64,000 bases of DNA from an uncultured Pseudomonadota bacterium. GTDB taxonomy: Bacteria; Pseudomonadota; Alphaproteobacteria; JACZXZ01. The stretch covers positions 448,001-512,000 of the forward strand of contig CAVVLJ010000016.1 in the NCBI GenBank assembly GCA_963749075.1, written 5' to 3'. Position 1 is the first letter of the stretch; every line of letters begins with the position of its first letter. Both the position numbers and the translations under genes were made by a program. Below, piece after piece: positions 28,368-60,096 of this stretch. Below the pieces are notes generated by a model. That model made no database searches, was not told where the DNA came from, and saw nothing but the letters and a program-made list of their open reading frames with translations.

Positions 28368-28417
28368 GTGCTGCAAGGCGGGGAGAGCCGGCGACCGGAA
28401 CACGGTAAGGGTCGGCG

Positions 28418-29152: not shown

Positions 29153-29199
29153 GTGCCGCGCGGAGAGTAGGGCTCGCGAGCGGAGCACCGTAGGGATCG

Positions 29200-29940: not shown

Positions 29941-29986
29941 CCGATACCCGTCTTCGCCTTGAACATTATGGAATCTAGAAAAGACC

Positions 29987-34778: not shown

Positions 34779-34782
34779 GACG

Positions 34783-40027: not shown

Positions 40028-41584
40028 ATGCCGATCTTCCAGCTCGGTCAGCTCAACACGACGGCGCTCATCGTCCCCGACCTCTACGTCCAGATCGTCC
40101 CGCCGCAGGTGACGCTGTTGAACGGCGTGCCGACCAACGTCCTCGGGCTGGTCGGCACCGCGAGCTGGGGGCCGGCGAACGCGCCGACCATCGTCGGCAG
40201 CATGGCGGACTATGCCAGCCAGTTCGGCCCCATCATCGCGCGCAAATACGACCTCGGCACCGGCGTCGCCGCCGCCGTGCTGCAGGGTGCCGCTAACTTC
40301 CGCTGCGTGCGCGTGACGGACGGCACCGACGCGGCGGCCTCCTTGGCGCTCAAGGACACCACAACGCCCACCGCCGCGACCGGCCTCACGCTTACGGGGA
40401 AATACACGGGCTCGCTCGGCAACCAGCTCGTCGCCAGCGTCTTCAACGGCTCGCAGACCGGCACCTTCCGCATCGTCGTCACCATGCCGGGCTTGGTGCC
40501 CGAGACCTTCGACAATATCCCGGGCACCGGTGCCGCGCTCTGGGCCAACATGGCGAACGCCATCAACTTGGGCCTGGGCGGCCTGCGCGGCCCCTCCCAG
40601 CTCGCGGTCGCGAGTGCGGGGAGTGCCACCAACCCGCCGGCACTCGTCACCAACCAGGCCTTCGCGGGCGGCAGCGACGGCGCCACCACGATTACCGCTT
40701 CCGTGCTGGTCGGCGTCGACACGGTGCCGCGCAAGGGCATGTACGCCTTGAGGAACACCGGGACGAGCATCGCGGCGCTGGTCGATGCCGACGATTCGAC
40801 CGAATGGACGGCGCAGGTCGCCTTCGGCCTCTCCGAGGGCATCTACATGATCATGGTGGGGCCCGCCGGCGACAGCATCGCCAACGCGGTCTCGGTCAAG
40901 GCCACGGCCGGCATCGATTCCTACGCGGCCAAGCTCCTCTTCGGCGACTGGGTCTATTTCAACGATACGGTCAACAACCAGCTCCGCCTCATCTCGCCCC
41001 AGGGCTACATAGCCGGGCTCCTCGCCAATCTGGCACCCCAGGGCTCGAGCCTGAATAAGCAGCTCTACGGCATCGTCGGCACCCAGAAGTCGATGCAGAA
41101 CCAGACCTACTCCTCGGCCGACCTCCAGGCGCTCGTCGAAGCCGGCATCGACCTCATCGCCAACCCGGTGCCGGGCGGCAGCTACTTCGGCGCGCGCGTC
41201 GGCCACAACACCTCCTCGAACGCCGTCATCCAGGGCGACAACTACACGCGCATGACGAACTACATAGCTGCCACGCTCAACGCCGGGATGGGCATCTACG
41301 TGGGCCTCCTTCAGACGCCGACCGTGCGCGCCCAGGCCGCGGCCACGCTCGACAACTACCTCTACAATCTCGAGCAGCAGGGCCAGATCGGCACCGCCGA
41401 CGGCTCGCAGGCCTATTCGGTCGTGCTCGACGATTCCAACAACCCAGCCAGCCGCGTAGCGCTCGGCTACATGCAGGCCGACGTGCAGGTCATCTATCTC
41501 TCGGTCATCGAGAAGTTCCTCGTCAACATCGAGGGCGGCCAGTCGGTGCAGATCGTCAGCCAGGGTGTGACGCCGGTGAGCTGA
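40028..41584 (+). CDS. Contractile tail sheath protein
   Basis: VPDLYVQIVPP, GLVGTASWGP, GGSDG, NYTRMTNYIA, LDDSNNP..RVALG. Confidence 0.88.
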   Translation: MPIFQLGQLNTTALIVPDLYVQIVPPQVTLLNGVPTNVLGLVGTASWGPANAPTIVGSMADYASQFGPIIARKYDLGTGVAAAVLQGAANFRCVRVTDGTDAAASLALKDTTTPTAATGLTLTGKYTGSLGNQLVASVFNGSQTGTFRIVVTMPGLVPETFDNIPGTGAALWANMANAINLGLGGLRGPSQLAVASAGSATNPPALVTNQAFAGGSDGATTITASVLVGVDTVPRKGMYALRNTGTSIAALVDADDSTEWTAQVAFGLSEGIYMIMVGPAGDSIANAVSVKATAGIDSYAAKLLFGDWVYFNDTVNNQLRLISPQGYIAGLLANLAPQGSSLNKQLYGIVGTQKSMQNQTYSSADLQALVEAGIDLIANPVPGGSYFGARVGHNTSSNAVIQGDNYTRMTNYIAATLNAGMGIYVGLLQTPTVRAQAAATLDNYLYNLEQQGQIGTADGSQAYSVVLDDSNNPASRVALGYMQADVQVIYLSVIEKFLVNIEGGQSVQIVSQGVTPVS

Positions 41585-41617: not shown

Positions 41618-42046
41618 TCACGCTGCGTCGCGGCTCGCTACCACGAGCGATTTGCCGAGCGCGCGCATGGCGGCCTCGATCTGCTCGATCCCGGAGCGGT
41701 GCCGCAGGTCGAAGACGCGCATGACCTGGGGCATCGCCCAGCCAAGCCGCCGCGCGAGCGCCGCCTTGCTGATGCCCGCGCGGCGAAACTCGAGGTAGAG
41801 AAGTGCCTTGGCGGCCTCGAGCGGCGCCAGATGGACGAGCGGCCGGCCGCGCGCCGGAGACGGCTTGGGCAGCGCGCGCCCGTCGGCCACATAGGCGGAG
41901 ACGATCGTCTCGAGGAGATCGGCGGCGAAGCCGAGTGCCTCCTCCCTGGTCTCGCCGTGGGTGGCTCCGGTTCCGAAGTCGGGGAACGTCACCATGTAGC
42001 TTTTGCCGTCCCGCGCGACGGCTGCCGGATAGGCGAGCGTGGTCAT
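41618..42046 (-). CDS. hicB: HicB-family antitoxin
   Basis: YMVTFPDF...ATHGETREEAL..A.D.L, P.PS, C-terminal HTH. Confidence 0.85.
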   Translation of the reverse strand: MTTLAYPAAVARDGKSYMVTFPDFGTGATHGETREEALGFAADLLETIVSAYVADGRALPKPSPARGRPLVHLAPLEAAKALLYLEFRRAGISKAALARRLGWAMPQVMRVFDLRHRSGIEQIEAAMRALGKSLVVASRDAA

Positions 42047-42227
42047 CTAGCGGTTCTCCAGATCGGTCGGCTTCAAGCGGTCGTTTTAAGTGCATAAAAA
42101 TCTAGTTATTTCAATACGTTATAATTCCATCGTCCGATAACGGAAATTTAACAATCGCGAGATTATCACTTCCCGGGTGTCAACCCTATTGTAAAGTGTC
42201 AAGTGGGATGCTAAGTAGGATATTGCA

Positions 42228-43034
42228 ATGGGCAAAAAAATGAGCGACGCGCCGGTCTACTTCGTCCTTGGGCAGGTGCGCTTCAATGCGCTGCTCACTC
42301 TCGAGAGCTATGTGCCAACGATACAGGATTCATTGAGGAAAGTTGGGTATGCAGACTTTGCAAAAGCCACGATAGCAACGATCAATTTGAATATCGGCGT
42401 GCAAGTCGCCGTTAATCAAGTGCCGGTCGCACAAATTCCCCGCTATCAATTCTTAAATCAAGCCAAAACGGCTGGCTTCATTCTTACTCAATCGGCGCTC
42501 AGCTTCGAAACAACGGAATATCATACTTTTGAACCGTTTAGAGATGCATTGCTGTTGGGGCTGAAAACAATCGATGAGGCCACGGGAGGACTTAGCTTTT
42601 CCGAACGCATCGGAATTAGATTTCTTGATGCGGTATGTCCTCGACCGAACGAAAACCTGTCAGACTATCTAGCGCCGTCACTGATCGGACTAAGTGACAA
42701 GCTTAATGGCAGAAAACTCACACGGGCGGTTTCAGAGACGTGGTCCGCCTTAGATAAAACGAACCTTATGTGCCGGGTAGTTATTCATGACCAAGCCGCC
42801 AAAGGGCCTGGCTTTCCTCCCGATCTTCATCCAGAGGCGGTGATTTTTCAAATATCTGAAAAATTTCGCAACATAACCGGGCTATATGCTATTATTGACA
42901 CTGATAGTTGGCATGAAGAGAGGCAAAAATTCTCTATCGACAAAATTAAAGAAATCCTGGGGGGACTTCATGCTACCACGCGTCGATCATTCGACGATAT
43001 GGTCACACCGCACGCTCTCATGGTTTGGGAGTGA
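42228..43034 (+). CDS. TIGR04255-like sporadically distributed protein (low GC)
   Basis: APVYFVLGQVRF, ETTEY..FE.F, ERIGIRFLD, IIDTD..H, F..MVTPHAL..W pattern. Confidence 0.7.
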   Translation: MGKKMSDAPVYFVLGQVRFNALLTLESYVPTIQDSLRKVGYADFAKATIATINLNIGVQVAVNQVPVAQIPRYQFLNQAKTAGFILTQSALSFETTEYHTFEPFRDALLLGLKTIDEATGGLSFSERIGIRFLDAVCPRPNENLSDYLAPSLIGLSDKLNGRKLTRAVSETWSALDKTNLMCRVVIHDQAAKGPGFPPDLHPEAVIFQISEKFRNITGLYAIIDTDSWHEERQKFSIDKIKEILGGLHATTRRSFDDMVTPHALMVWE

Positions 43035-43041
43035 TTGTGAC

Positions 43042-43644
43042 ATGGAACGTCTAAATCAAACGACTCCATGGCTAGATAAAGACATAGTAGTGTCTTTTCT
43101 CATGCCGGTCACGCTCGCCTTGCAATTGGGCACGGGAGGGTATGAGACAAGAGAATATTACCAGCAGCGTTTACTCGATACGGTGCCAACTTATTATGGG
43201 CGTGCGGACTCCGGGCTTCCTGTCTCTGTGTCGAGGAATAATGCAAGCGACGTGCGCCACGTCCTGGACGTTCTTAAGCCTTCCGTTACAGGGCTTGCGA
43301 GATATTTGGGCGTCTCTCGGACGACGATTTACGACTGGAAGCACGGGAAGCAGGTCGGCGCGGACAATGCTGCGAAGTTGGCGAGCTTTTCGCGAGCGGC
43401 GGATGTCATCGCCGACGCGAATTTGCAGATGTCGCCCCTAGTTCGGGGAAGGAAACTCCCAGGCGGGATGACATTGTTCGAATCCATCGCGAGCGGCGCC
43501 GATGCCGAACAGGCCGCACTAGCGCTCGTCACAATGCTGCGCGAGGAGGCTGCTCGGCGAGATAGGCTCACAGCCCGGTTTTTGGGTCGCATCAAGCCCG
43601 ACACGGAGGGCACACACGATGCTCCTACCGTGTTCAATGAGTGA
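43042..43644 (+). CDS. HTH DNA-binding/antitoxin-like protein
   Basis: LKPSVTGLARYLGVSRTTIYDWKHG HTH. Confidence 0.7.
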   Translation: MERLNQTTPWLDKDIVVSFLMPVTLALQLGTGGYETREYYQQRLLDTVPTYYGRADSGLPVSVSRNNASDVRHVLDVLKPSVTGLARYLGVSRTTIYDWKHGKQVGADNAAKLASFSRAADVIADANLQMSPLVRGRKLPGGMTLFESIASGADAEQAALALVTMLREEAARRDRLTARFLGRIKPDTEGTHDAPTVFNE

Positions 43645-44493
43645 GTGCGATTTGTGGCCGGGCGTCACCCAAGAATCAGTTGGCGCCAGGGTCACGTTCT
43701 AACGGCCGATACCGCCGAGAAACTCGGACTAGCCCATCCAGCGAACCCCACAGAAACTACAGTTGTGGTCGTTTCTCACGACTGCGATCTCGTGCAGAGC
43801 GAAACGAGCGAACCGCTAGTGGAAGTCATTATTGGCCGCGAAATCAACGAAGACGAAGTCAATGGCAATTTCCTCAACGCAAAGGGATCGCGCACGCTTC
43901 ATCTTCCGTTTACCGCTGGGTCTAGTAGGCTTATTCTCGAGTTGTCCGCGACACAGAAACGCCAGATTGATAAGGCCGCGCTGATCCCCCATAACCCATC
44001 GCCGATCGCGCAACTGTCGCTAAGCGGGCGAAGAATTCTGCAGCGATGGCTAGCGGCGCGATACCTACGCGCCGCGTTTCCAGATGAATTTGTGGCTCGC
44101 TTCGGCAATTCAGGTGCTGACGAGCGGCTTAAAAAGATAGTGAAGAAGGCACAATCGCATCTCGTGGCAATCTATTTTGACCTCGATCGAGGGGAAGAAA
44201 AAGAGCGCGCAGGCGACGACGATCTTTATGAATTATCGATTTTCCTGGTACATCCAGTTGACCCCGATCCTGCGATCTCTCGGGAAGCTGCGCACGAGGC
44301 GAAGGTTCTTATCGAGCAAATGTTTGAGACATGTTGTAAGCACGATGGCCAGTGGCGGGGCATCCAGTTGGAAGGGTGCTACGTCCAGTCGGCTGCGGAA
44401 GTGACTTTGCACACAGTCGATTTTTTAAAGAAATGGAATACCGATTATCTAAGTTTCCGCGCCGATCCAGAAGGCCCGATGGTCGCCGTCTAG
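43645..44493 (+). CDS. Hypothetical protein, third gene of the low-GC cassette
   Basis: WRQG, VVSHDCD, EPLVE, WLAARYLRAAFPD motifs; coupled to previous gene. Confidence 0.7.
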   Translation: MRFVAGRHPRISWRQGHVLTADTAEKLGLAHPANPTETTVVVVSHDCDLVQSETSEPLVEVIIGREINEDEVNGNFLNAKGSRTLHLPFTAGSSRLILELSATQKRQIDKAALIPHNPSPIAQLSLSGRRILQRWLAARYLRAAFPDEFVARFGNSGADERLKKIVKKAQSHLVAIYFDLDRGEEKERAGDDDLYELSIFLVHPVDPDPAISREAAHEAKVLIEQMFETCCKHDGQWRGIQLEGCYVQSAAEVTLHTVDFLKKWNTDYLSFRADPEGPMVAV

Positions 44494-44626
44494 AATTTAC
44501 GGCTTGACCATCGATTATGTGCGGCCTTTTTTGCAATCACTTTTCTGCTCAGGAGACCGTGCGTCGGCTCGCCCCCCGCCGCGAGCCCGCCTTCCATCGT
44601 CGCCCGTCAAGTGAGAGGTGCCAGCC

Positions 44627-45058
44627 ATGCCGTTCAACAATTTCAGCGTCGGCAAGGACGTGACGCTGCAGATCGTCACCCAGCAGGGAGTGCTGCTCTC
44701 CTCGCTCCTCACCAGCTTCACCTCGAAGCAGCGCACCAACGACAAGACCGTCAAGGGCCTCGACGGCGTCATGCGCCCGCTCTTCCTGCCCGACGGCTGG
44801 GAGGGCACCTTCGAGTACGAGCGCGGCAGCTCCGACCTCGACGACTTCATCGCCGCGCTCGAGGCCAACTACTACGCGGGCGAGGCCATCACCGGCGCCA
44901 CCATCCTCGAGACGATCAGCGAGACCAACGGCCTGACCAGCCAGTACCGCTACGAGGGCGTGGTCTTCAAGCTCTCCGACGCCGGCGAATGGAAGGGCGA
45001 TTCGAGCGTCAAGATGCGCCTCGAGTTCTCGGCGAGCACGCGCAGCAAGGTGGTATGA
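44627..45058 (+). CDS. Tail tube protein
   Basis: 143 aa, FSVGKDVTL, PDGWEGTF, ETI.E..G....YRY, W.GD..V; first phage gene after sheath once the inserts are removed. Confidence 0.8.
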   Translation: MPFNNFSVGKDVTLQIVTQQGVLLSSLLTSFTSKQRTNDKTVKGLDGVMRPLFLPDGWEGTFEYERGSSDLDDFIAALEANYYAGEAITGATILETISETNGLTSQYRYEGVVFKLSDAGEWKGDSSVKMRLEFSASTRSKVV

Positions 45059-45071
45059 GCAGGCGCCCGCC

Positions 45072-46004
45072 ATGGCGCTGGTTCCCGATACCACGCTCAC
45101 GCTCGGCGACGTGAGCTTCGCCTCCTACGAGGTGCCGGAGCGCATCTCGTTCGGCGGCGCGCAGCGCCTCGCCGTGCACAAGGTCATCGGCGGCGCGCGC
45201 GTCGTCGACGCGCTCGGCCCGGACGATGCGGAGATCTGCTGGTCCGGCCGCTTCCAGAGCCCGAATGCCGGCCCGCGCGCGCGCCACCTCGACTATCTGC
45301 GCCGCCAGGGCACGGCGCTCACCCTAAGCTGGGACCAGTTCAGCTACAGCGTGGTGATCAGCCGCTTCGCGGCGGAGTTCGAGCGCTACTACCAGATTCC
45401 CTACCGCATCGCCTGCCTTGTCGTCGAGGACGACACCCAGCCGGTGACGACGAGCCCGTCGACGCCGGTCGACGAGCTGGTGGCGGAGGACGCGGCCGAG
45501 CTCGCGAGCCTCGCCTCCTCGAGCGGCAATAGCGGGATTGCCGGCAGCACCGGGCAGCTCCAGGCGCTCCTCGCCTCGTCGGCACCTCTCGCCGCGGCCT
45601 CGGCAGGGACGCTCGCCGCACTCGAGAGCCTGCTCGCCGAGCTCGCGGCGCTGATCGCGGCGGCCATTGCCGCGGCGGCCCCCGCCTTCGACGGCGGCGC
45701 CTCAGCGGGCTCGGGGGCGGCGGCGCTGCTCGGCCAGTCGAGTGCCGCCGCGGCACTCGCAATCCTCCTCGAGATGCAGGCGCTCGCCGGCCGCATTGCC
45801 TGCAACCTGCGCCGGGCCTCACCCGCCGCGTCCGGCCGCACCATCACTGTCGCCGGCGGCAATCTCTTCAGCATCGCCGCGGCACTCCTCGGCGACGCCA
45901 CCCAGTGGAGCCGCATCGCGGCCCTGAACGGCCTCACGGACCCGGTGCTCGCCGGCATCACGCAACTGCGCCTGCCGCCCATCGATACGAGCGCGGGCGG
46001 CTAG
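45072..46004 (+). CDS. Tail protein with C-terminal LysM-like domain (tube initiator/gpU-gpX-like)
   Basis: EVPERISFGG.QRLAVH, GGNLFSIAA..LGDATQWSRIAALNGL.DP. Confidence 0.75.
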   Translation: MALVPDTTLTLGDVSFASYEVPERISFGGAQRLAVHKVIGGARVVDALGPDDAEICWSGRFQSPNAGPRARHLDYLRRQGTALTLSWDQFSYSVVISRFAAEFERYYQIPYRIACLVVEDDTQPVTTSPSTPVDELVAEDAAELASLASSSGNSGIAGSTGQLQALLASSAPLAAASAGTLAALESLLAELAALIAAAIAAAAPAFDGGASAGSGAAALLGQSSAAAALAILLEMQALAGRIACNLRRASPAASGRTITVAGGNLFSIAAALLGDATQWSRIAALNGLTDPVLAGITQLRLPPIDTSAGG

Positions 46005-46040
46005 CATTCGGCGCGCCGGAGAACGATGGAGAGAGACAGC

Positions 46041-46484
46041 ATGCCGGACAACGTCAAGCTCACGCTCCACCCCGAGCGCCCGCGCGCCAACGGCGCCGAG
46101 GGTGCTGCCCACGCCGCGACACCGTCCCAGGAGATCCTGGAGCGCGCCAACCGCATCGTGCGCGTCTCCGACGCGCGCGGGCGCACCCTCGGCGTCAAGC
46201 AGCCGAGCCTCCTCGAGCGCTTGCGCATCTACGAGCTGGCCGGCGCGCAGAACGCCGAGAACAAGGTCTATCTCGGACTCGTGGGCACCGTGCTCGCGAT
46301 CGCCGAGCTCGACGGCGAGCGGCTGCCCTTCCCCGCCACCAAGCGCGAGCTCGAGGCGCGGGTGAGCCTGGTCGGCGACGAGGGGCTGGCGGCGGCCGGC
46401 CGCGCGCTCGCCGAGCATTTCAGCGAGCCCGCCGCCGCCGATGACGAGGAGACGGCAAAAAACGCATCGGGCACCCCGGCTTGA
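46041..46484 (+). CDS. Tail assembly chaperone (gpG-like)
   Basis: Ends with in-frame A AAA AAC slippery heptamer (46457-46463). Confidence 0.75.
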   Translation: MPDNVKLTLHPERPRANGAEGAAHAATPSQEILERANRIVRVSDARGRTLGVKQPSLLERLRIYELAGAQNAENKVYLGLVGTVLAIAELDGERLPFPATKRELEARVSLVGDEGLAAAGRALAEHFSEPAAADDEETAKNASGTPA

Positions 46485-46633
46485 AGCAGGCGCTCTACCT
46501 CGCTTCGAGAGGGGTGCCGTTCGACATCGCCTTCTCGCTGCCGGACCGCGAGCGGACCGGCTGGTGCCGCATGCTTGCCGAGCTCGAGCGGCCGGGCCTC
46601 GTGCGAATCGTCGACGGCCGCCGGCGCAGGTGA
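46457..46633 (+). CDS. -1 frameshift extension (gpGT-like)
   Basis: The -1 frame is open from the slippery site: KRIGHPGLKQALYLASRGVPFDIAFSL...ELE. Confidence 0.7.
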   Translation, partial: KKRIGHPGLKQALYLASRGVPFDIAFSLPDRERTGWCRMLAELERPGLVRIVDGRRRR

Positions 46634-46680
46634 AGACGCCCGCGATAATTATATATGTGTGCCGGCCGCAGAATTCGGAC

Positions 46681-46708
46681 TTGATTTGTTCCTGTCTTGC
46701 GCTATAAT
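46681..46708 (+). promoter_or_regulatory. Sigma70-like internal promoter for cassette A2
   Basis: TTGATT-16-TATAAT. Confidence 0.55.
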
Positions 46709-46996
46709 GGGTGTAACGACCGTAGGATTTTCAATCTTAGGTCACTGCCCCTTGACGCCGGCCGCCGCCGACGGGCGCAGGAGCGGAAGCTGTCGTGAGG
46801 GGCTCGGCCATCGGACTGTCGGCGGCGTGGGCAGCGTCGGCGACCGGCCGGCCGGCCGCGCGGGAGTCGCTGCCGCTGCTTGCGGGTTGGGCGCAGCGCC
46901 CGTCTCCACAAGCGCGCGGCATCTCGCGACGGCCGGCCGGCCGTCTTTACCGGCGGTGTGGCGCCGTTTGGCGCCCTTGACGCCAGGAGAGCGAGC

Positions 46997-47743
46997 TTGA
47001 GACTGCCGTGGCGCAAGCGGGGGGCGGCGGCGGGCAATGCCGCAGGCCGCGCGCGCAAGCGCCCGCGCGTCATTGCGCGCGTGCTCGCCGGCTCAGCCCT
47101 CCTCCTCATCGCGGCCGTCTTCGGCCACGGCCTTGTGGTGAGCCTCTCGGGACCGAAGGAGGGCGCGCCCGGCCGCGACGGGGCGCCCACCGGCTACACC
47201 TACGATCTTACGCCGCTGATCCTCGAGATCGGCCCCCATAGATTCGTCGTCCCGCGCGGCTACCTCTACGCTTATGACGTAGGCAAGACGCGGCAGAGAT
47301 CGATCGGCATCCAGGTCATGCTGCCCGACTTCGAGCCGATCTCTCCGAGCAACAGCGCCTGCTTCGCCGACCAAGGAACGTGCAACGACATTTTCTGGCT
47401 GGGCCTGAGCCCGGGGCGCGGCGTGCCTGCCGAGCAACAATTGGCCAACGTGCTGCGCGGTGCCGAGGATAATGTTCGGCCTGCCTACGGGTTCGCTCAG
47501 CATTTGAACACGACCTTTGGCAGGCGTGCGGAGATATACACCTCAGGCGAGGGGCACGAGCTCCTGTTCCTCGATTGCGACACGCCCGATGAGCTGCTGC
47601 CTAGCTGCAGCCAAGAGCGCCCGCTCGGGGACGGCCTCGTGCTGTGGTACTATTTTCGCCGCGTCCATCTCGCCGAATGGCCCGACATCGAGCGCAAGGC
47701 GATGGCCTTGATCGCGCGTTTCGAGGGCGGGGACAGCCCTTGA
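46997..47743 (+). CDS. Single-pass membrane protein, putative immunity A2-i (TTG start)
   Basis: TM; C-terminal FRRVHLAEWPDIERKAMALIARF, similar to the A1 proteins. Confidence 0.7.
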   Translation: MRLPWRKRGAAAGNAAGRARKRPRVIARVLAGSALLLIAAVFGHGLVVSLSGPKEGAPGRDGAPTGYTYDLTPLILEIGPHRFVVPRGYLYAYDVGKTRQRSIGIQVMLPDFEPISPSNSACFADQGTCNDIFWLGLSPGRGVPAEQQLANVLRGAEDNVRPAYGFAQHLNTTFGRRAEIYTSGEGHELLFLDCDTPDELLPSCSQERPLGDGLVLWYYFRRVHLAEWPDIERKAMALIARFEGGDSP

Positions 47744-48423
47744 AGCAGCCGTGGCCGAAGCGCCCGGGCGGCTGCATAAGACTCCTTGCCGCCTGCGTCC
47801 TCGCGCTCGTCGCGGTCATCTTCGGCCACGGCCTCTTGGGGAACCTCTCGGGACCGAAGGAGGGCGAGCTTGGCCGCGACGGCGCGCCCACCGGCTACAC
47901 CTACGATCTCGGGCCGGTCGCGGTAACGCTCGGCCCCTACGCGCTCCGCATTCCGCACGCCTACATTATCTGGAAGTCCGATCGTGGGCTTGTCGTGCTC
48001 GACGCTATCCTCCCCGACCTCGAGCCGATCCGGCCGGCCACCAGCGGCTGCTTTGCCAGGCCATGGGAATGCCATCGCGTCGTGGGGATCGCGCTTGGAG
48101 AGGAGAAGTTGCTCCCCGCCGACGAGCAGCTCGCGAATATCACCCGCGGCCTTGAGGACAAGACCCGGCCGGTCTTCGGGTTCATCCAGCATATCAATAC
48201 GACCATACGAGCGATGGCGGAGACCTACAGCATGGGCCAGGGACGCGACATGCGCCTTCTCTCTAGCGATCCGCCGGACAAGGCCGATGCCGGTTGCGAC
48301 GAGGATCGGGAAATCAGGGAAGGGTTGGTCATGACTTTCCGGTTCGATCGAGAGCGCCTTGCCGAATGGCCGGAGATCGAGCGCAAGGTGATGGGTCTGG
48401 TTGCGACCTTCATGCGCGAGTAG
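47740..48423 (+). CDS. Putative immunity A2-ii (TTG start)
   Basis: Paralogue of 46997 (LSGPKEG..GRDGAPTGYTYDL; RLAEWPEIERKV). Confidence 0.7.
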   Translation: MKQPWPKRPGGCIRLLAACVLALVAVIFGHGLLGNLSGPKEGELGRDGAPTGYTYDLGPVAVTLGPYALRIPHAYIIWKSDRGLVVLDAILPDLEPIRPATSGCFARPWECHRVVGIALGEEKLLPADEQLANITRGLEDKTRPVFGFIQHINTTIRAMAETYSMGQGRDMRLLSSDPPDKADAGCDEDREIREGLVMTFRFDRERLAEWPEIERKVMGLVATFMRE

Positions 48424-48496
48424 CCGGCCTGCGCGCGGCCCACGCCGGCTGATCGACGACCGCGAACCGACGCCCGGGCTCCTGAGGCATCATCCC

Positions 48497-49990
48497 ATGG
48501 ACAAGGAATTGCGGCTGCATCCCGAGGCGCTCGCCGCGGCGAGAGCCTATTGGCGGGCCAAGGATTATGCCGCGATGTACCGCGTGATCGCCCGGGATTT
48601 GCGCAGCCTCGGCGCGGATCACGATACCCAGGTCTGGTACGACCTGGCGGCCGGGATCAACGATCCGAAGTCGGAAAGCTTCCGCGGCGCCTTGGGGCGC
48701 TACTACGTGATGGAGAAGCTCTTCCAAGAGACCGGGCGGCTGATCGCGCCGTTCGGGGACGACTTCAACCGGGTGTCCGACGAGATCGCCTGGAAGGTTG
48801 GAAAATATGCCTACGAGCATGACGGCCTCGTTAGGACTTGGCCGGAAATCATGCAGAGGGATGCGCTGGCCGCAACGGAAGGTTTCCACAGCAGCCCAGA
48901 GGTCTGGCCCGGCTTCGCGGACGCCGAGCTCCTCGACTGGTGGCCGAAGTCGCTGTTCCCAAGGAGCTTCGACGACCATAGCTTTGCTGCCGACCTGCCG
49001 CCGGCCACGGCGACGGAGGTCGGACGCGCGGGCCTGAATGCCTTTTTCGACGAGGTCGAGGCGCCCGCTTGGGGTCCGCTCCGCTTCTACATCGAGGTGG
49101 GGCGCCTTGCCGCCCAGGGCCTCTACTCGACATGGCGCGGCGATTTCCGCGGCCACGACGGCGATTGGCTCGGCACCGGCAAACTCTATTGGCAGGAGCT
49201 CGGCAAGGAGCTCGAGCGTCCGTGGCATTGGGGCGACGACGTGCCGCCCGCGCCAGGTCCGCTCGGCGGGGACCTCCTCTTGCACGGCGCCGGCTCGCGC
49301 CTTTCGCTCATGGCAGCGCCGGACTCCCATTCCGGGCCGGCGCCGTCCGTCGCCGCCTCCTTCGCCGCCGATCGCGCGCGCACCGCCCTGGCGCTCCCCG
49401 GTTCCTTCGAGCCGGATTTAGCGATGCGCGGCTCTTGGATATGGCCGGACGCAGCGGCGCCGGCGACCCCGCCCGCGCCCCCGTTCGCCGCGGACGCCTC
49501 GCCTCTCCTCGCGTTGCCCTATCTGCCGGAGATGCGCGACGGGCTCGAGCTTCGGCATCTCGCGCTGCCTCCCGCCTGGGGCTCCGGGCATCTCTTCCCG
49601 GAGCTGTCGTTTCTTCCCGCGCGCGCCGCCGCCGACGGCTTCGATCCCGAGCCTGGCGACGTGCCGCACTGGCCGGCGGCCGACGAGTTCGTGCCTGACG
49701 GCGAGGCGAGCTTGCACGGTGACGGACCGCCGCCCCAGGGAGAGACCGGCGAGGACGGAAGGCGCCTCGAGCGCGTCGAGGGCGGCATCGGGCGGATCGA
49801 GCAGTCGCTGGCCGAGGTGGTCGCCAAGCTCGAGGCGAGCTACGCGCGGCGCGAGCGGCTCGGCCGCCGCGAGATCATTCGCGTGGTCTCCGAGTGGCTG
49901 GAGTACCAAGCCAACAAGCCGCGCAACATGTCGTGGCGCTACGACTTCCGCCGCACCTACACACCGCCGGGCCCCGTGCCCGCCATGTGA
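48497..49990 (+). CDS. Putative effector A2 at the tape-measure position
   Basis: Unique N-domain, Pro/Ala linker, coiled coil, tag QANKPRNMSWRYDFRRTYTPPGPVPAM shared with 29987. Confidence 0.7.
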   Translation: MDKELRLHPEALAAARAYWRAKDYAAMYRVIARDLRSLGADHDTQVWYDLAAGINDPKSESFRGALGRYYVMEKLFQETGRLIAPFGDDFNRVSDEIAWKVGKYAYEHDGLVRTWPEIMQRDALAATEGFHSSPEVWPGFADAELLDWWPKSLFPRSFDDHSFAADLPPATATEVGRAGLNAFFDEVEAPAWGPLRFYIEVGRLAAQGLYSTWRGDFRGHDGDWLGTGKLYWQELGKELERPWHWGDDVPPAPGPLGGDLLLHGAGSRLSLMAAPDSHSGPAPSVAASFAADRARTALALPGSFEPDLAMRGSWIWPDAAAPATPPAPPFAADASPLLALPYLPEMRDGLELRHLALPPAWGSGHLFPELSFLPARAAADGFDPEPGDVPHWPAADEFVPDGEASLHGDGPPPQGETGEDGRRLERVEGGIGRIEQSLAEVVAKLEASYARRERLGRREIIRVVSEWLEYQANKPRNMSWRYDFRRTYTPPGPVPAM

Positions 49991-50076
49991 GCCCCGCTGC
50001 CGCGCGCGACGCGGCACCGCGCAAGGCGTATATATGCCGTGAGGGATATGCAACCGCGCATGGGAAGGGAGTTGCG

Positions 50077-50838
50077 ATGCGGCCCTACGACGGGGCAGAG
50101 CGCACGAGACGGGAGGGGTTAGGGTTTCGGCGCGGCCTCGCCGCCGCCGCGCTGCTGACGGTCCTCGCCCTAGCAGCGCCGGCTGCCGCGCGCTACGGCG
50201 ATTTCGACTTCTGGGGCCGCACTTGGCCGCTGCCGATCTATGTGCCGGTGTGGAGCGCCGACGCGGCGGTCTGCCAGCGCATCGTGAAGGCGCTCAATGG
50301 TGCCCGGCGGCCGTCGCTGTCGCTATATAGCAATAAGATATTCCTCCGCTGGCATGACCATCCGGCATACCCTCGCAAGAACGGCACTGAGTGGAAGCTG
50401 GGGGAAGACTACGGCCGTTGGATGGAGGTGCCGCTCTTCAACGACGGTAGGCCGGTCATCGCGCTCAAGGTCATCTCTCCAGGCGCGCATTTCGTGCAGG
50501 AGGTCTTCTATGTCTTTGACGATCTCGCCTACTACCGCTCCCAGGACTGGCTGAAGGGCAAGCTGTGGGAAGACCCAAGTGTTCTGCAGCCGATCGAGCC
50601 GTTCCTGGGCAAGCAATTCTACACGCTGATGCCGCTGCCGAGGACAATCAAGGATTACCATTACTGGAGTCTCGATTGGATTGGCAGTGACGAGGAGACG
50701 AATATCGCAGATTTTAATGGCCGATTATACGAAGTCATCAGGAGGCCATCTGATGAGGCCATTCTTATTCTATATTTTTCCGAGGAACGCAGAGGACATG
50801 CGGTTTGTCTCATCGGGCCGAAGAAACTGGTTCGATGA
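50077..50838 (+). CDS. Exported protein, putative lysozyme-effector immunity B1
   Basis: Signal peptide (AAA-RYGDFDFWGR); paralogue of 53797 and 56337. Confidence 0.7.
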   Translation: MRPYDGAERTRREGLGFRRGLAAAALLTVLALAAPAAARYGDFDFWGRTWPLPIYVPVWSADAAVCQRIVKALNGARRPSLSLYSNKIFLRWHDHPAYPRKNGTEWKLGEDYGRWMEVPLFNDGRPVIALKVISPGAHFVQEVFYVFDDLAYYRSQDWLKGKLWEDPSVLQPIEPFLGKQFYTLMPLPRTIKDYHYWSLDWIGSDEETNIADFNGRLYEVIRRPSDEAILILYFSEERRGHAVCLIGPKKLVR

Positions 50839-50880
50839 GGCCTACCAGGCTCTCGATTTACGCGAGAAGAGGACTGCGTC

Positions 50881-52533
50881 ATGGCTGACCTGCCGCCCAC
50901 CGGCAATTACGACAAGGCCGCTCGGTACAAGAGTTTCCGCAACGAGCTCATAGGGCAGGCCGAGAACCCAAATCTCGCAAGGGGACTGATCAGCAGCCCA
51001 CCGTAGTCGACGGCCATCTGACGCTTGGCTTCGGTTACGACCTCGCGACGCGCCGCTCGAATCCCGAGGGGATCCTCGCCGACCTGGCGTTGGCCGGCAT
51101 TGCGCTCACGGTCCAACAGACCGCGGCGATCCTCTACTATGGCGGCAAACCGAATTCGGTCATCCGGGGCTATCTCGACGATCTCGCCGCGTTCGGAACG
51201 ACGGTCACCGACGACGACCGCAAGTTCGTCGAGAATTTGACTGCGCAGGATCGGACAGATGAGGGCCTCGGTCACCTCCTGTCCGACCTCCTGATCACGA
51301 AGCCGCAGGGCACGGCGCTGCTCGAGATCGCCGTCTCGGAGAAGGAGAAGCGGCTCGACAGGATCATCGAGGAGCGTGCGAAGAAGCTCAGGAAGAAGGA
51401 TAAGGGCCCTGAGGCGGAGCGGCTCGAGCAGTTGACGCAGCTCACCGACCGGCGCGCGGTGCTGGTCGATATGCTCTACGAGACGGCGAGCCTCCTCGGT
51501 CCCAGGCTCCTCCACGCGCTCGGTATGGGCGATGCGGCCGCGGCGGCGGTCGAGATCGCCTTCTTCAGCAACAAGGACCCGGTCGACAACAGCGGCGACG
51601 ACCCGCGCGACCGCACGCGCGCCGAGAAGTTCCTCGGCGGCGCGCTCGAGCCGCGCACGGAGGAGGAGGCGCGGGCGTTCCTCCGCGCGCTCGCGGAGCG
51701 CTCCGGCGATCTGGCCGAGGCCCTGGCGAAACGACGATTTGCCAATGAGGGCGTTGAGGGGGATTACCGCGCTGCCGTCGGCAAGCTCGCCAACGTGGCG
51801 CTGCGCCGGCTCGGCGTGGCGGCGACGATCGCTTTGAGCGACCGCGGCCGCCTCGCGGTGCAACAGGCGGTGCCGCTCGACCGCTTCGCCGAGGCCTTCG
51901 GCCTCACGGCGCTCGAGGTGGCGCTCGTCAACCCCGAGCTCTTCCCGACCGCACCCGACCAGTGGGCGCCGACCATGCTGAGCGTGGGCGCCGCCCCGCA
52001 TCTGCCGACCGCGGCGGAGCGGGCGGCGCTCGAGCGGACGCTGCGGGATGCCGGGCCGCTCCTGGCGCCCGAGCGGTACGAGGAGCTGCGCCGGCGCTAT
52101 CTCGACAATCTGCATCCGCCGCCGCGGGGCCAAGCCGAGCTGCCCGGCGGCGGCCCGTCGCTGGCCGTGGTGCCGCGCGCGGCGCCCGGAGCTCGCGCTC
52201 GCGCTCGAGGCGGCGCTGCCGCCGCCGCAGCCGTGGTCCGCGGCCTTTGCGCGCGACGCCGAGCTGATTTGGAGCGCGCCGGTCCAGGCGCTCCTCCCGC
52301 GCGACGTCCGGGACGCCTGGCTTCGCTTTGAGGGCGGGCTCTCCGAGGAGGAGGAGGCAGCACTCCGGGTGCTGCCGGCTCCGCCGCCGCGGGGCTGGGG
52401 TGTTGCCGCCCGCCGGCGCGCGGGACCCCGTCTCGACGTGGCGGCGCTCGACCGCATCATCGCGAAGATTGAGCGGGTGGTGCGCCTCTCCGAGATCCTC
52501 CTCGAGAAGGTCGAGGCGTGGAACCGCGGGTAG
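50881..52533 (+). pseudogene. GH24/lysozyme-like putative effector B1, frameshifts near 50980 and 52180
   Basis: Homologous over its full length to intact 54601-56235 but spread over three frames. Confidence 0.7.
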
Positions 52534-52608
52534 GGCTCCGCCCGGCTTAGGCGAGGCGTCGGCCCTCGGCAATTCTCCCCATTGAGCGCGCGCAAGGTGC
52601 GGGGCGGC

Positions 52609-53697
52609 ATGAGCGACACCTCATCGAGCGGCACCTCCGCAGGGCGGCGGCCGCGCGCGGCGATCGACGTGGCAGGGACGCGGCTCGGCGGCATCGTCGA
52701 GCTCGAGGTGAGCAGCAACAACCTGCAGTCGCCGGATAGCTTCCGCGCGACGCTTGCGCTCGGCGCGCTGCCGCAATCGCTCGGCCTCGCCTATTGGGCC
52801 CAAGCGAGCGACGTGAGCGTCGAGCTCTTCGCGGGCTTCGCGGTGGACGGCGGGACGGGCGCGGACGCCACGCTCGCGAGCCTCATCCAGGGCAAGGTCG
52901 ACCGCGTCGAGATCGATCCCGTCGCCGCCGAGCTGCACCTCTCCGGCCGCGACCTCTCGGCGCCGCTCTTCGACAACCGCACCAGCGAGAAGTTCGACAA
53001 CCAGACGAGCTCGGAGATCGCCACCACGCTCGCGGCGCGGCGCGGGCTCAATCCGGTCGTGACGGCGACCACCACGCTCGCGGGGCGCTATTACGAGATC
53101 GAGACGGCGCGGCTCACCCGCGAGGTGGTCGAGTGGGACCTCCTCTCCTATCTCGCGCGCGAGGAGGCCTTCGATCTCTTCGTGCGCGGCGGGAGCCTCT
53201 ATTTCCAGCCGCCGGCGGGAGAGGCCGCGGCCACCTATGCGGTGCAGTATACGCCGGCCGCCGGCGGCACGCCTGCGGGGGGCAACTTCATCGACTTGAA
53301 GCTCGCGCGCGACCTCACCCTCGCGGAGGGTGTGAGCGTCACGGTCAAGAGCTGGAACGCCAAGGATGGCACCGGCTTCGCGCTGAGCGCCCCGCAGGCA
53401 GGCACGGGCGGACTCAGCTACAGCTTCGTGCTGCCCGGCCTCAAGCCGAGCCAGGCGCTCAAGTTCGCCTCCTCGCAATATAATGAGATCACGCGGCACG
53501 AGCGCAGCCTCGCGGTGACGCTCCCCGGCGACACCTCGCTCACGCCGCAATCGCGCCTGACGCTCGAGGGCACCGGCAGCGGCTTCGACCAGAGCTACTT
53601 CATCACCGGCATCGAGCGCCGCTTCTCCTTCGAGGGCGGCTTCACAATGACCGTCTGCGCCAAGAACGTCTCGCCCGGCGGCGACCCCGCGGGCTGA
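52609..53697 (+). CDS. Baseplate hub / late control gpD-like protein
   Basis: GKVDRVE, LSGRDLSA, EWDLLSYLAREE.F, V.VKSWN, LPGD..L.P, FDQSYFI. Confidence 0.82.
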   Translation: MSDTSSSGTSAGRRPRAAIDVAGTRLGGIVELEVSSNNLQSPDSFRATLALGALPQSLGLAYWAQASDVSVELFAGFAVDGGTGADATLASLIQGKVDRVEIDPVAAELHLSGRDLSAPLFDNRTSEKFDNQTSSEIATTLAARRGLNPVVTATTTLAGRYYEIETARLTREVVEWDLLSYLAREEAFDLFVRGGSLYFQPPAGEAAATYAVQYTPAAGGTPAGGNFIDLKLARDLTLAEGVSVTVKSWNAKDGTGFALSAPQAGTGGLSYSFVLPGLKPSQALKFASSQYNEITRHERSLAVTLPGDTSLTPQSRLTLEGTGSGFDQSYFITGIERRFSFEGGFTMTVCAKNVSPGGDPAG

Positions 53698-53796
53698 CGG
53701 CAGCACCCCCGGCGCGCGCTCTCGCGCTGGCGGCATCGACGGAAGCGGTATATATCCCATGTCGGTTGTGCAACCGCGCATGGGGCGGGAGCTTCG

Positions 53797-54558
53797 ATGC
53801 GGCCGGGCGACGGGACGGAGCGCACGGGACGAGAGGGGTTGCGGCTTCGGCGCGGCCTCGCCGCCGCCGCGCTGCTGACGCTCGTCGCCATTGCAGCGCC
53901 CGCTGCCGCGCGCTACGGCGATTTCGACTTCTGGGGCCGCAGCTGGCCGCTGCCGATCTACGTGCCGGTGTGGAGCGCGGACGCGGCGGTGTGCGGGCGC
54001 ATCGTTAAGGCGCTCAACGCTGCCCGGCGGCCGTCGATGTCGCTCTACAGCAACAGGATTTTCCTCCGCTGGCAGGACTATCCGGCGGACGCGCGCACCA
54101 ACGGTCCCGATTGGCACCCATACCAAGACCATGCGCGCTGGATGGAGGTGCCATTCTTCAACGACGGCTGGCCGGTCATCGCGTTCAAGGTTATCTATGA
54201 GAGCAGCCGCTTCATCGACGAGCATCTCTACGTCTTCGACGATTTGGCCTACTACCGCTCCGAGGACTGGCTGACGGACAAGCTGCGGCAGAACCCGCGT
54301 GTATTGATGCCGATCGAGCCGTTCCTGGCCAAGCAGTTCTACACATTGATGCCGCTGCCGAAGACAATGAAGGATTACCATTATTGGAGTCTCGATTGGG
54401 TCGGGTATGATGAGGAGACGAATATAGCGAATATTGATGGCCGATTATATATAGTCATTAGGAGGCCGTCTGGTGAGGCCATTCTCGTATTATTGTTTTC
54501 CGAGGAACGCAAGGGGCGCGCAGTGTGTCTCATCGGGCCAAAGAAACTGGTTCGATGA
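53797..54558 (+). CDS. Exported protein, putative immunity B2
   Basis: Paralogue of 50077. Confidence 0.72.
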   Translation: MRPGDGTERTGREGLRLRRGLAAAALLTLVAIAAPAAARYGDFDFWGRSWPLPIYVPVWSADAAVCGRIVKALNAARRPSMSLYSNRIFLRWQDYPADARTNGPDWHPYQDHARWMEVPFFNDGWPVIAFKVIYESSRFIDEHLYVFDDLAYYRSEDWLTDKLRQNPRVLMPIEPFLAKQFYTLMPLPKTMKDYHYWSLDWVGYDEETNIANIDGRLYIVIRRPSGEAILVLLFSEERKGRAVCLIGPKKLVR

Positions 54559-54600
54559 GGCCTGCCGGGCTCTCGATTTACGAGAGAAGAGGGTTGTGGC

Positions 54601-56235
54601 ATGGCTAACTCGGCGCTCACCGGCAATCACGACGAGGCCAAACAGTACAAGAAATTCCGCAACGAGCTCATCGAGCAGGGCGAGAACCGGGACCTCGCAA
54701 AGGGGACTGATCAGCAGCCCACGGTAGTCGACGGTCATGTAACGCTCGGCTTCGGCTACGACCTGGCGACGCGGCGCGCGGATCCCTACGGGATTCTCGC
54801 CGACCTCGCCTCCGCCGGCATCGCCCTCACGGCCAAACAGACCGCGGCCATCCTCTTCTATGGCGGGGCGCCGATCGCCAGCATCCTGCACTATCTCGGC
54901 GTTCTCGCCGTCTGGACGACGGTCACCGACGACGACCGCAAGTTCGTTGAGAATTTGAGCGCGCAGGATCGGACGGATGAGGGCCTTGGCCACCTTCTGT
55001 CCGGCCTCCTGATCACGAAGCCGCAGGGCGTGGCGTTATTCGAGATCGCCGTTTCGGAGAAGGAGAAGAGGTTCGACGGGATCATCGAGGGGCTTCAGAA
55101 GGACCTCAAGAAACACGAGAAGGTCATTGAGGCGCAGCAGCTCGAGCGGCTCAAGCTGCTCTCCGACCAGCGCGCGGTGCTGGTCGATCTGCTCTACCAG
55201 ACGGAGCGTTTCCTCGGGCCGAGGCTCCGCGACGCGCTTATGGCGAACGACGCGATGGCGGCGGCGACCGAGATTGCCTTCTTCACCAATTCGGCAGGGA
55301 CGCAGCACGGCGACGAGCGCAACCTCGCGCGCTCCAGGGCGTTCCTCGGCCATGCCTTCGAGCCGACGACGGAGGCGGAGGCGCGGTCGGTCCTGCATGT
55401 TCTCGCCGAGCGGCAAGGAGACCTGGCGCAGACGCTGGCGTCACGGCGGCGTCACGGCAAGGTTCTGAAGGACTACCGCGACCAGGTGAGCGCCGCGGCC
55501 AACGCGGCGCTGCGCAGGCTCGGCGTGGCGACGACGGTCGCCTTGAGCGATAGCGGCCGCCTCGCGGTGCAACAGGCGGTGCCGGTCGACCGCTTCGCCG
55601 AGGCCTTCGGCCTCACGGCCCTCGAGGTGGCGCTCGTCAATCCCGAGCTTTTCCCGACGGCACCCGACCAGGGGGCGCCGACCATGCTGCGCGCGGGTGC
55701 CGCCCCGCATCTGCCGACCGCGGCGGAGCGGGCGGCGCTCGAGCGGACGCTACGAGATGCCGGACCGCTCCTGGCACCCGAGCGGTTCGAGGAGCTGCGC
55801 CGGCGCTATCTCGACAATCTGCATCCGCCGCGGCGCGGTCATGCCGAGCTGCCCGACGGCGCCCCGTCGCTGGCCGCGGCGCGGCTCGTGGCGCCGGAGC
55901 TCGAGCTCGAGGCGGCCCTGCCGCCGCCGCCGGCCGGGTCTGCCGCCTTCGCGCGCGACGCGGAGCTGACTTCGAGCGCGCCGGTCCAGACGCTCCTCCC
56001 GCGCGACGGCCGGGACGCCTGGCTTCGCCTTGAGAGCGGGCTCTCCGAGGCGGAGGCCGCGGTACTCTGGGCGCGGCCCGTTCCGCCGCCGCGGGGCTGG
56101 GGCGCCGCCGCAGGCCGGCGCGCGGCATCTCGCCTGAGCGCGGAGGCGCTCGACCGCATCATCGCGAAGATCGAGCGGGCGGTGCGCCTTTCCGAAATCC
56201 TCCTCGAGAAGGTCGAGGCGTGGAACCGCGGGTAG
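54601..56235 (+). CDS. GH24/lysozyme-like putative effector B2 (intact)
   Basis: GE...DGHVTLGFGYDL and QRAVLVDLLY...LGPRLRDAL..AATEI resemble T4-lysozyme/pesticin-fold motifs; C-terminal LDRIIAKIERAVRLSEILLEKVEAWNRG. Confidence 0.7.
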   Translation: MANSALTGNHDEAKQYKKFRNELIEQGENRDLAKGTDQQPTVVDGHVTLGFGYDLATRRADPYGILADLASAGIALTAKQTAAILFYGGAPIASILHYLGVLAVWTTVTDDDRKFVENLSAQDRTDEGLGHLLSGLLITKPQGVALFEIAVSEKEKRFDGIIEGLQKDLKKHEKVIEAQQLERLKLLSDQRAVLVDLLYQTERFLGPRLRDALMANDAMAAATEIAFFTNSAGTQHGDERNLARSRAFLGHAFEPTTEAEARSVLHVLAERQGDLAQTLASRRRHGKVLKDYRDQVSAAANAALRRLGVATTVALSDSGRLAVQQAVPVDRFAEAFGLTALEVALVNPELFPTAPDQGAPTMLRAGAAPHLPTAAERAALERTLRDAGPLLAPERFEELRRRYLDNLHPPRRGHAELPDGAPSLAAARLVAPELELEAALPPPPAGSAAFARDAELTSSAPVQTLLPRDGRDAWLRLESGLSEAEAAVLWARPVPPPRGWGAAAGRRAASRLSAEALDRIIAKIERAVRLSEILLEKVEAWNRG

Positions 56236-56264
56236 CATGCCGATGGACGCCTTCCTCAACCGGC
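55574..56264 (+). repeat. ~690-bp near-identical direct repeat, copy 1
   Basis: Matches 58130-58820, including the first codons of gpV (ATGCCGATGGACGCCTTCCTCAACCGGC). Confidence 0.92.
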
Positions 56265-56336
56265 CGAGCCCTGCCGCGCTGGCCGCATCGACGTTGACAG
56301 GATATATCTCATGTCGGTTATACAACCGACTATGGG

Positions 56337-57110: not shown

Positions 57111-57152
57111 TGCAGACCCTTACGCGGTCTTTGCTCTAAGGAGGATTGCGGC

Positions 57153-58791: not shown

Positions 58792-58820
58792 CATGCCGAT
58801 GGACGCCTTCCTCAACCGGC
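58130..58820 (+). repeat. ~690-bp near-identical direct repeat, copy 2
   Basis: Matches 55574-56264. Confidence 0.92.
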
Positions 58821-59399: not shown

Positions 59400-59657
59400 A
59401 TGGCCAAGGTGGCGCGGCTCGGCGATACGGCGAGCCACGGCGGCGAGATCGCGACCGCCTCGCCCGACGTGACGGCCAACGGCATCGGGGTGGCGCGCGT
59501 GGGCGACAGCTACGACTGCCCGATCCATGGCGCCAATCCCATTGTGACGGGCTCGGCGACCGTCAAGGCCAACGGCCGGCTCGTCGCGCGCGTGGGCGAT
59601 GCGACCGCCTGCGGCGCCGTGATCACCAGCGGCTCGCCCAACGTCGACGCGGGATAG
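59400..59657 (+). CDS. PAAR-domain spike tip protein
   Basis: VARLGD..SHGG, VARVGD.YDCPIHG, VARVGD..ACGA. Confidence 0.92.
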   Translation: MAKVARLGDTASHGGEIATASPDVTANGIGVARVGDSYDCPIHGANPIVTGSATVKANGRLVARVGDATACGAVITSGSPNVDAG

Positions 59658-60044: not shown

Positions 60045-60096
60045 CGCCGCGCCCCAAGGCGGCGCCCCACCTCCGATCCGAGAGAGCACCACGGCC

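Follow-up and report, generated by a model that had tools for sequence, protein, structure and literature searches.

We analysed a window of 64,000 nt (positions 448,001 to 512,000 of the forward strand of contig CAVVLJ010000016.1, assembly GCA_963749075.1), this being the whole stretch of DNA to which the coordinates below refer. The Pfam and PHROG matches of its genes indicate that it holds a prophage of myovirus type, and the present work deals with a part of the tail cluster of this prophage in which a tail assembly chaperone, two membrane proteins and a large protein, E497, follow one another on the plus strand. Read in order, the genes there code for the tail tube protein (44618-45058; phrog_12993, E 5.1e-42); LysM310, a tube-initiator-like protein of 310 amino acids (aa) named after the LysM region at its C-terminal end (45072-46004; phrog_21362, E 3.5e-78); the chaperone (46026-46484); the membrane proteins X1 and X2; and E497 (48497-49990). 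A broken copy of a repeated unit, Y-Z, comes next, followed by a gpD-like baseplate hub (52582-53697, plus strand; phrog_52, E 1.2e-30; VgrG_rel, E 1.7e-13), which is the next conserved tail gene after E497. The tube and hub proteins are, respectively, 26-52% and 28-44% identical to those of the related loci displayed, the tube protein reaching 77% with one metagenome locus, L051. Chaperone homologues sit directly after the tube gene in related phages; in the window, the LysM310 gene parts the chaperone from the tube gene, and the two X genes part it from E497.

The chaperone, 152 aa long in its G form, matches phrog_20383 (E 3.2e-19), a family annotated as unknown in PHROG and without a Pfam match. 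Reading the sequence directly, we found that the codons GCA AAA AAC near the end of the open reading frame (ORF) put A AAA AAC (46457-46463) in the zero frame as a slippery heptamer of the X XXY YYZ kind, and that the -1 frame, which contains ALYLASRGVPFDIAFSL, is open to the TGA at 46631-46633; a -1 shift would append this T extension (46463-46633) to give a GT fusion of about 202 aa. Both the heptamer and the open frame had been pointed out beforehand, and both withstood comparison with 42 related loci, 40 of them IMG/VR contigs and two of them phages from GenBank. In 38 of these loci tblastn matched the T extension, and in four it did not; in 37 of the 38, the extension is encoded in the -1 frame and the overlap holds a slippery heptamer (32 G GGA AAC, two A AAA AAA, one A AAA AAG, and two A AAA AAC), the exception being L036, where it is in frame 0. 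Equivalent heptamers occur in two metagenome contigs described below, L050 and L055. The T extension shows 39-55% identity with its -1 counterparts in the related loci displayed, with the motif GVPFD[IV]AFSL in common; Ralstonia phage Hyacinthe has this motif too and, by direct reading, the same frameshift arrangement. Because the -1 frame and the heptamer are kept in 37 of 38 loci, we regard the G/GT-type frameshift of 46026-46484 as genuine and conserved, far above chance.

Other approaches to the chaperone brought little. A PDB sequence search with its profile gave nothing meaningful, and a scan of genome contigs with the chaperone gave no match. The search for homologues drew a blank in all 10 other genomes of the family, and in the class it yielded weak matches in 2 of 400 other genomes. 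Prediction of a complex between the chaperone alignment and E497 returned a score of 0.00 with the verdict “no answer”, which is no evidence either way. Among the related loci, L030 has a phrog_20383 gene (4690-5079) directly after its capsid gene and far from its tube gene; in that phage, the tape-measure slot, 5' of the LysM310 homologue, is taken by an ORF of 724 aa. Members of this family, therefore, also occur outside the place of a tail chaperone.

Between the chaperone and the X genes lies a candidate sigma-70-like promoter, TTGATT-16-TATAAT (46681-46708, plus strand), which matches at 10 of 12 positions and precedes the immunity-like genes. A promoter had been proposed earlier at this place. 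The -35 block of the candidate, ATTCGnACTTGATTTGTTC, is kept at 20 of 21 positions behind a paralogous chaperone gene of the same prophage (27079-27462), and the number of promoter-like sites (2 found versus 1.0 +/- 1.2 in shuffles) is not significant by itself. If X1 starts at TTG 46997, a GC-rich leader of about 290 bases (46709-46996) separates this site from X1.

X1 (46880-47743, plus strand) is a single-pass membrane protein with a predicted periplasm-facing domain, and X2 (47644-48423, plus strand) is its paralogue, with 44% identity. For X1, TTG 46997 is the likely initiation codon, because the paralogue X2 suggests it; X2 likely starts at TTG 47740, overlapping the X1 stop codon. That the locus codes for two membrane proteins had been noted before, and it agrees with what we found: each has one N-terminal hydrophobic segment (Kyte-Doolittle 19-residue means of 2.2 for X1 and 2.6 for X2), as does each of three further paralogues, X3-X5, encoded elsewhere in the prophage. 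When a profile of X1-X5 was compared with the PDB, one entry was found, 6PDK (E 1.8e-4, 24 bits), matching in two colinear stretches near both chain ends. According to PMC6759196, this entry is Smlt3025, an immunity protein of the periplasm whose gene lies upstream of the one for Smlt3024, an effector with toxicity in the periplasm only. Neither X1 nor X2 has a match in Pfam or PHROG. In NCBIfam, X2 matches NF050129, “Smlt3025 family T4SS inhibitor” (T4SS, type IV secretion system), with E 0.0015 and 17.8 bits, and X1 does so with E 0.15 and 11.3 bits; the equivalog cut-off is 500 bits, so that X1 and X2 appear to be distant relatives of Smlt3025 only, and not members of its family. Scans of genome contigs and of viral contigs with the X alignment gave no match.

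E497 fits the outline given in the preliminary description, namely a protein of about 500 aa with a proline-rich linker and a C-terminal tag: it is 497 aa long, 17% of residues 246-418 are prolines, and its last 80 residues or so are shared with a second protein of the prophage, E440 (BLASTP E 2e-15, C-terminal only). It has neither a hydrophobic nor a glycine-rich central part, and its predicted helix comes from a low-confidence structure model (mean predicted local distance difference test score, pLDDT, of 38). No match was found in Pfam, PHROG, or NCBIfam, so that E497 is not a member of any tape-measure family recognised there; the PDB sequence search gave nothing meaningful, and the ESM Atlas gave no usable match for residues 1-250.

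Finding relatives of E497 needed an exhaustive HMMER search over 1.84 billion representative proteins. The E-type C-terminal domain was found in P0004-P0008 (E 7e-15 to 5e-10), four of which, P0005-P0008 (E 1e-14 to 5e-10), are additional to E497 and E440, and the N-domain of E497 (residues 8-150) in eight other proteins, P0009-P0016 (E 4e-9 to 1e-4). Word-indexed searches among 5.8 billion proteins, for which the queries were full-length E497, its residues 415-497, and E440, returned only E497 and E440 themselves; scans of viral contigs with P0011, P0008, P0005, and the N-domain alignment gave no match. In the collection of genomes at hand, where the host order counts 11 genomes, the E alignment was found in 0 of the 10 others, and the N-domain of E497 in 0 of 400 other genomes of a sample of the phylum.

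To interpret E497, one has to look at what occupies the same slot in related phages. In all 33 related loci with both a chaperone and a LysM310 homologue, the order is tube, chaperone, one large ORF (the tape measure), LysM310, and hub; this is the comparison that the preliminary description had called for, and it bears out its statement that G/GT normally precedes the tape-measure gene directly. The large ORF exists in a long form (610-742 aa, eight distinct sequences) and in a short, Pro/Ser/Arg-rich form without family match (281-313 aa, 20 distinct sequences). Three long forms were scanned and match PHROG tape-measure families (phrog_28, E 9e-10 and 1.3e-11; phrog_9145, E 1.5e-4), and both forms have a C-terminal end in common, as a hidden Markov model (HMM) of the long form finds the short ones at E 9e-8 to 0.06.

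The extreme C-terminus of E497 resembles this end. In a comparison by hhalign of seven E-type C-termini with eight C-termini of long tape measures, the probability was 60.4% (E 8.4e-5). The aligned part consists of 40 columns, in register, at the extreme end of the chains, RLDGREVIRIV...NKP...YD...TPPG being aligned with KLDGRVIAEA...ARP...FD...RPVG; in a separate profile run with eight sequences, the score was 27.1 versus a maximum of 14.3 in 60 column-shuffled controls. With the long-form HMM, the six E-type proteins all fall into this register, but none reaches significance, P0005 coming closest with E 0.02 for 1000 sequences. HMMs of the relatives' tape-measure C-termini did not match E497 or E440 in the window at E up to 10, their direct scores being 1.5 and 1.0 bits. 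We, thus, consider homology of E497 with tape measures probable but modest, and restricted to the C-terminal module. The different C-terminus of P0011 was also tried as a tape-measure end; its score of 11.5, with a shuffle maximum of 12.7, allows no claim.

Two side observations concern the slot itself. In the short forms from IMG/VR (L007-L045), conservation is limited to a short N-terminal motif, RIAWFL.LQRIL.FP, and to another of some 45 residues at the C-terminus; proteins of this size are unusually short for a tail that is contractile and has a sheath protein of about 510 aa. In Komagataeibacter phage phiKX1 (L002), the 742-aa ORF that occupies the tape-measure slot is separated from the LysM310 homologue by some 4.4 kb (6746-10986) in which small genes, one of them for a KilA-N protein, are encoded on both strands; an isolated phage can, therefore, also have insertions at the tape-measure/LysM310 junction.

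Searches of the genome for an ordinary tape measure came back empty, whether by tblastn with the tape measures of Hyacinthe and phiKX1, with phrog_28 and PF10145, or with HMMs of tape-measure C-termini; the only proteins with an E-type C-terminus in the genome are E497 and E440. The two observations that the preliminary description had named as telling against its proposal, a tape measure elsewhere in the element and an end-to-end match of E497 to ordinary short tape measures, were both looked for: no tape measure was found elsewhere in the element, and E497 has no end-to-end alignment with either short or long tape measures. Its view that the tape-measure locus was converted holds in part. 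The lack of an ordinary tape measure in element and genome agrees with it, but a plain overwriting by foreign cargo is not supported, as E497 keeps the 40-residue C-terminal module of the true tape measures of this clade and is, therefore, better read as a tape-measure derivative.

The cassette is not the only one of its kind: the whole of it, -35 block included, is duplicated in the prophage at 27079-31309, and cassettes are found at other sites in related phages. This second copy, on the plus strand, begins after the portal gene with a chaperone paralogue of 127 aa (27079-27462; phrog_20383, E 8.1e-15), 51% identical over 99 aa to the product of 46026-46484. It continues with X3, X4, and X5 (27546-28367, 28418-29152, and 29200-29940), tandem paralogues of X1 and X2 which belong to the tandem repeat families D4 and D6, are 27-28% identical to X1, and have a C-terminal RLAEWP..E.K motif in common. 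It ends with E440 (29987-31309), which has the same C-terminus as E497 and an N-domain unlike that of E497, related instead to P0005; profiles of the two types of N-domain are unrelated (E 0.2).

The E-type genes recur in six metagenome contigs of 1.5-3.8 kb from three data sets, where they stand among the tail genes of close relatives (tube 77%, LysM310 77.5%, and gpV 82.5% identity). In L051, the E gene (P0005) is followed by the tube gene (77% identical) and then by the chaperone (51%); in L052, the E gene (P0006) is followed by a gene for a 139-aa phrog_20383 protein and by LysM310 (77.5%); in L050, it is followed by a frameshifted chaperone. L055 carries gpV (82.5%), a chaperone ending in GCA AAA AAA TAG with a -1 extension, a WD40/PD40 propeller gene, and an E protein with a class-3 lipase domain (Lipase_3), and L053 and L054 are of the same lipase type; in these three contigs the Lipase_3 domain, at 29 bits versus a Pfam cut-off of 22, is joined to the constant C-terminus. 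This C-terminus is, thus, found on at least three unrelated N-domains, those of the E497 type, of the E440/P0005 type, and Lipase_3, and the upstream gene switches with the type of N-domain, X genes standing beside E497 and E440 and the WD40 propeller beside the lipase type. As far as can be judged from sequence, the set shows both features that are looked for in polymorphic toxins, exchangeable domains on what would be a constant delivery domain and a putative immunity gene beside the variable end. The suggestion, made from the first inspection of the locus, that effector- and immunity-like genes follow the chaperone is strengthened by the likeness of the X proteins to Smlt3025/6PDK and by the occurrence of the E-type C-terminus on Lipase_3 proteins.

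We, thus, propose, with a probability of about one half, that the locus is a polymorphic toxin/immunity module built on the tape-measure and chaperone route, and that E497 derives from a tape measure and resides in the tail lumen. The unit would have three parts: a G/GT chaperone made via a programmed -1 frameshift; at least one immunity-type gene with its own promoter-like site, here two membrane-anchored, periplasm-facing relatives of Smlt3025; and a protein composed of an exchangeable N-domain, a long proline-rich spacer, a long helix, and a constant tape-measure C-terminal module. In such a scheme, G and GT would keep E497 soluble and, as in lambda, would use the T part to deliver it to the tube during polymerisation; its tape-measure-like end would seat it in the hub; contraction would expel it first, into the periplasm of the target, where the N-domain would act; and lysogens, which would express the X proteins, would be protected from particles of their own kind. 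We infer, in other words, that the chaperone binds E497, that E497 is present in virions, that its N-domain is toxic, and that the X proteins protect. More tentatively, a temperate myovirus lineage may have converted its tape measure and G/GT into a modular, multi-copy toxin loader, each cassette bringing a different payload to the tail lumen; if so, the virion would be both a phage and an interbacterial toxin injector, and the immunity conferred by the prophage would decide which neighbours survive contact with a particle.

The rest of the prophage gives the setting in which this proposal has to be weighed. Besides the genes already named, it codes for a terminase (23717-25189), a portal (25202-26545), an SU10-like capsid protein (33248-34228), a sheath (40028-41584; phrog_23, E 5.7e-49), a gpV-like spike (58793-59392), a PAAR protein (59400-59657), and a baseplate J-like protein (59995-61224). 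LysM310 has weak matches to P2 GpU (E 0.11) and to LysM (E 0.23); its centre (residues 178-215), between the weakly GpU-like N-terminal part and the LysM-like end, is alanine-rich and hydrophobic (Kyte-Doolittle 19-residue mean up to 2.05). Three copies of the Y-Z unit, of about 2.55 kb each, are found around the hub gene (50020-52580, 53740-56290, and 56286-58840), with 64-100% identity in DNA; Y (253 aa) has a signal-peptide-like start, and Z (544 aa) is unbroken in the middle copy only (54601-56235), the first and third copies shifting frame. Neither Y nor Z has a match in Pfam, PHROG, or PDB sequence searches. Paralogous small genes lie at 34392-36506, between the capsid and connector genes, their copies being linked by the direct repeats D11, D15, and D17, and the C-terminal part of one ORF there (35298-36506) matches Rap1a immunity proteins (PF18602, E 1.2e-10). 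Finally, an inserted block of low GC content (0.47-0.58, versus about 0.70 nearby) sits between the sheath and tube genes (41618-44493) and contains, on the minus strand, a HicB-like antitoxin gene (phrog_497, E 1.1e-25), together with genes for a helix-turn-helix protein and two unknowns.

Several observations weigh against the toxin/immunity reading, starting with E497 itself: searches of its N-domain in Pfam, NCBIfam, PHROGs, and PDB revealed no likeness to any known toxin, and the structure models are too poor to help, both for E497 alone (the pLDDT of 38 given above) and for X1 (five sequences, pLDDT 44). The tape-measure likeness is short and modest, plain HMMs staying below significance, and a profile of the short tape measures shows no likeness to the E C-termini (E 0.11). 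The match of the X proteins to Smlt3025 is likewise a remote one, at 24 bits in the PDB and 17.8 bits versus a cut-off of 500. One type of X protein stands beside two N-domains unrelated in sequence, which would not be expected under strict cognate pairing, and the second chaperone, read directly, has neither slippery site nor T extension. The gene order departs from that of all 33 relatives, LysM310 standing before the chaperone in none of them. Two of the three Y-Z units are broken, so that the prophage may be decaying.

On the last two of these points hang two other explanations. The order LysM310-before-chaperone could be an artefact of assembling a metagenome-derived genome with repeats, given that the genome is in 23 contigs (96% complete, with an estimated contamination of 5%), that there are repeats in the region, and that the LysM310-chaperone junction is not bridged among the contig pieces listed from public runs. 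We hold this to be very improbable: the window lies inside a contig of 1.38 Mb, the repeats are elsewhere (50020-58840 and 27667-29939), and a contig of 2370 bases in a public run, possibly from the source sample itself, spans the tube-LysM310 junction (two DNA runs of a single study, possibly including that sample, were listed as holding the locus, and no RNA run); an artefact would, besides, affect gene order only, on which the main conclusions do not depend. If the prophage is decaying, one could also see in the cassettes moron cargo, that is, toxin/immunity pairs exported by a cellular secretion system, the chaperones being leftovers of a phage that lost its tape measure and makes no tail. 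The many insertions (the low-GC HicB-like block, the Y-Z units of which two of three are broken, the Rap1a-like immunity paralogues) and the rearranged gene order would suit such a history, and so would the layout of the effectors of the X-T4SS, with an immunity gene upstream, a variable N-terminal part, and a constant C-terminal recognition domain, as set out in PMC6759196. That recognition domain, XVIPCD (PF20410), was, however, not found, either in E497 and E440 (E up to 5) or in the genome (E up to 1), and the constant C-terminus of the E-type proteins resembles tape-measure ends, not a secretion signal. Moreover, every gene of both cassettes is intact, with GC content at third codon positions (GC3) of coding type, the gene-to-gene junctions are tight (13 and 21 bases), and chaperone, immunity-like, and E genes come together twice here and in contigs of three data sets, always among tail genes; cargo of this kind, thus, seems quite improbable to us.

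A more serious contender, which we still think unlikely, is that E497 is the phage's own tape measure, with an N-domain that helps DNA through the wall or membrane, and that the X proteins serve superinfection exclusion, no interbacterial toxin being involved. Tape measures with enzymatic (muralytic) motifs are known, as are exclusion proteins that act on tape-measure function. E497 is encoded downstream of G/GT and has a tape-measure-like C-terminus, in a genome without any other tape measure; the slot was already variable in this clade, its 281-313 aa and 610-742 aa forms sharing only their ends; and the X genes have a promoter-like site of their own, like prophage exclusion genes. Against this, there are two E genes in this one prophage, each with a chaperone, and one ruler per tail needs no such set; close relatives carry several cassettes, at sites that vary within the tail cluster and include those behind gpV and ahead of the tube gene. 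The swapping of N-domains together with matching changes of the upstream gene (X or WD40) is the pattern of polymorphic toxin/immunity systems, and the X proteins resemble the immunity protein for a bacterial effector.

If the toxin/immunity reading is right, exchangeable toxin heads on a tape-measure end, each with a frameshifted chaperone and an immunity gene, would be a new route for loading contractile tails; this would explain a tail cluster without a recognisable ruler, serve as a model from nature for packing proteins of choice into tailocin-like particles, and tie phage superinfection immunity to interbacterial competition. Tape measures are viewed as rulers, sometimes with a wall-cutting motif, and polymorphic toxins have been described for secretion systems and for a protein of the phage head. 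In the excerpts returned by a full-text literature search, whose coverage leaves subscription journals outside, no description of polymorphic toxins borne by tape measures was found.

The closest known counterparts of the chaperone are lambda G/GT and P2 E/E+E', which share with it a small gene, a slippery heptamer at the 3' end, and a -1 extension, and which match the position between tube and tape measure seen in the relatives of our prophage. Here, unlike in lambda and P2, the chaperone follows the gene of a LysM tube initiator, two immunity-like genes stand before its presumed client, and there is more than one copy per phage, one of them without the T part; its family, moreover, is the one annotated as unknown in PHROG and lacking a Pfam match. 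With the tape measures of Hyacinthe (gp22), phiKX1 (phiKX1_610), and the IMG/VR contigs, E497 would have in common the slot after the chaperone and the C-terminal LDGR ... [KR]P ... D ... PPG of about 40 residues; outside this module, it is dissimilar to them, and its N-domain is shared with proteins of unknown role.

The pairs of the X-T4SS (X-Tfe/X-Tfi, for example Smlt3024/Smlt3025; PMC6759196) resemble our cassettes in several ways: the immunity gene lies upstream, its product faces the periplasm, the effector combines a variable N-domain with a constant C-terminal delivery domain, and the X proteins appear to be distant homologues of Smlt3025. They differ in that the constant domain of the E-type proteins is tape-measure-like and not XVIPCD, that our genes are in a tail cluster beside a tail chaperone, and that the X proteins would be anchored by a transmembrane segment and not by a lipobox. 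MuF polymorphic toxins and the cargo of extracellular contractile injection systems and of the type VI secretion system (T6SS) also place a toxin on a component of the virion or injection machine, with the immunity gene adjacent; in MuF proteins the constant part is N-terminal, and the cargo of injection systems and T6SS uses an N-terminal signal or Hcp/VgrG adaptors. In the system described here, by contrast, the constant part would be a C-terminal tape-measure module, served by a dedicated frameshifted chaperone.

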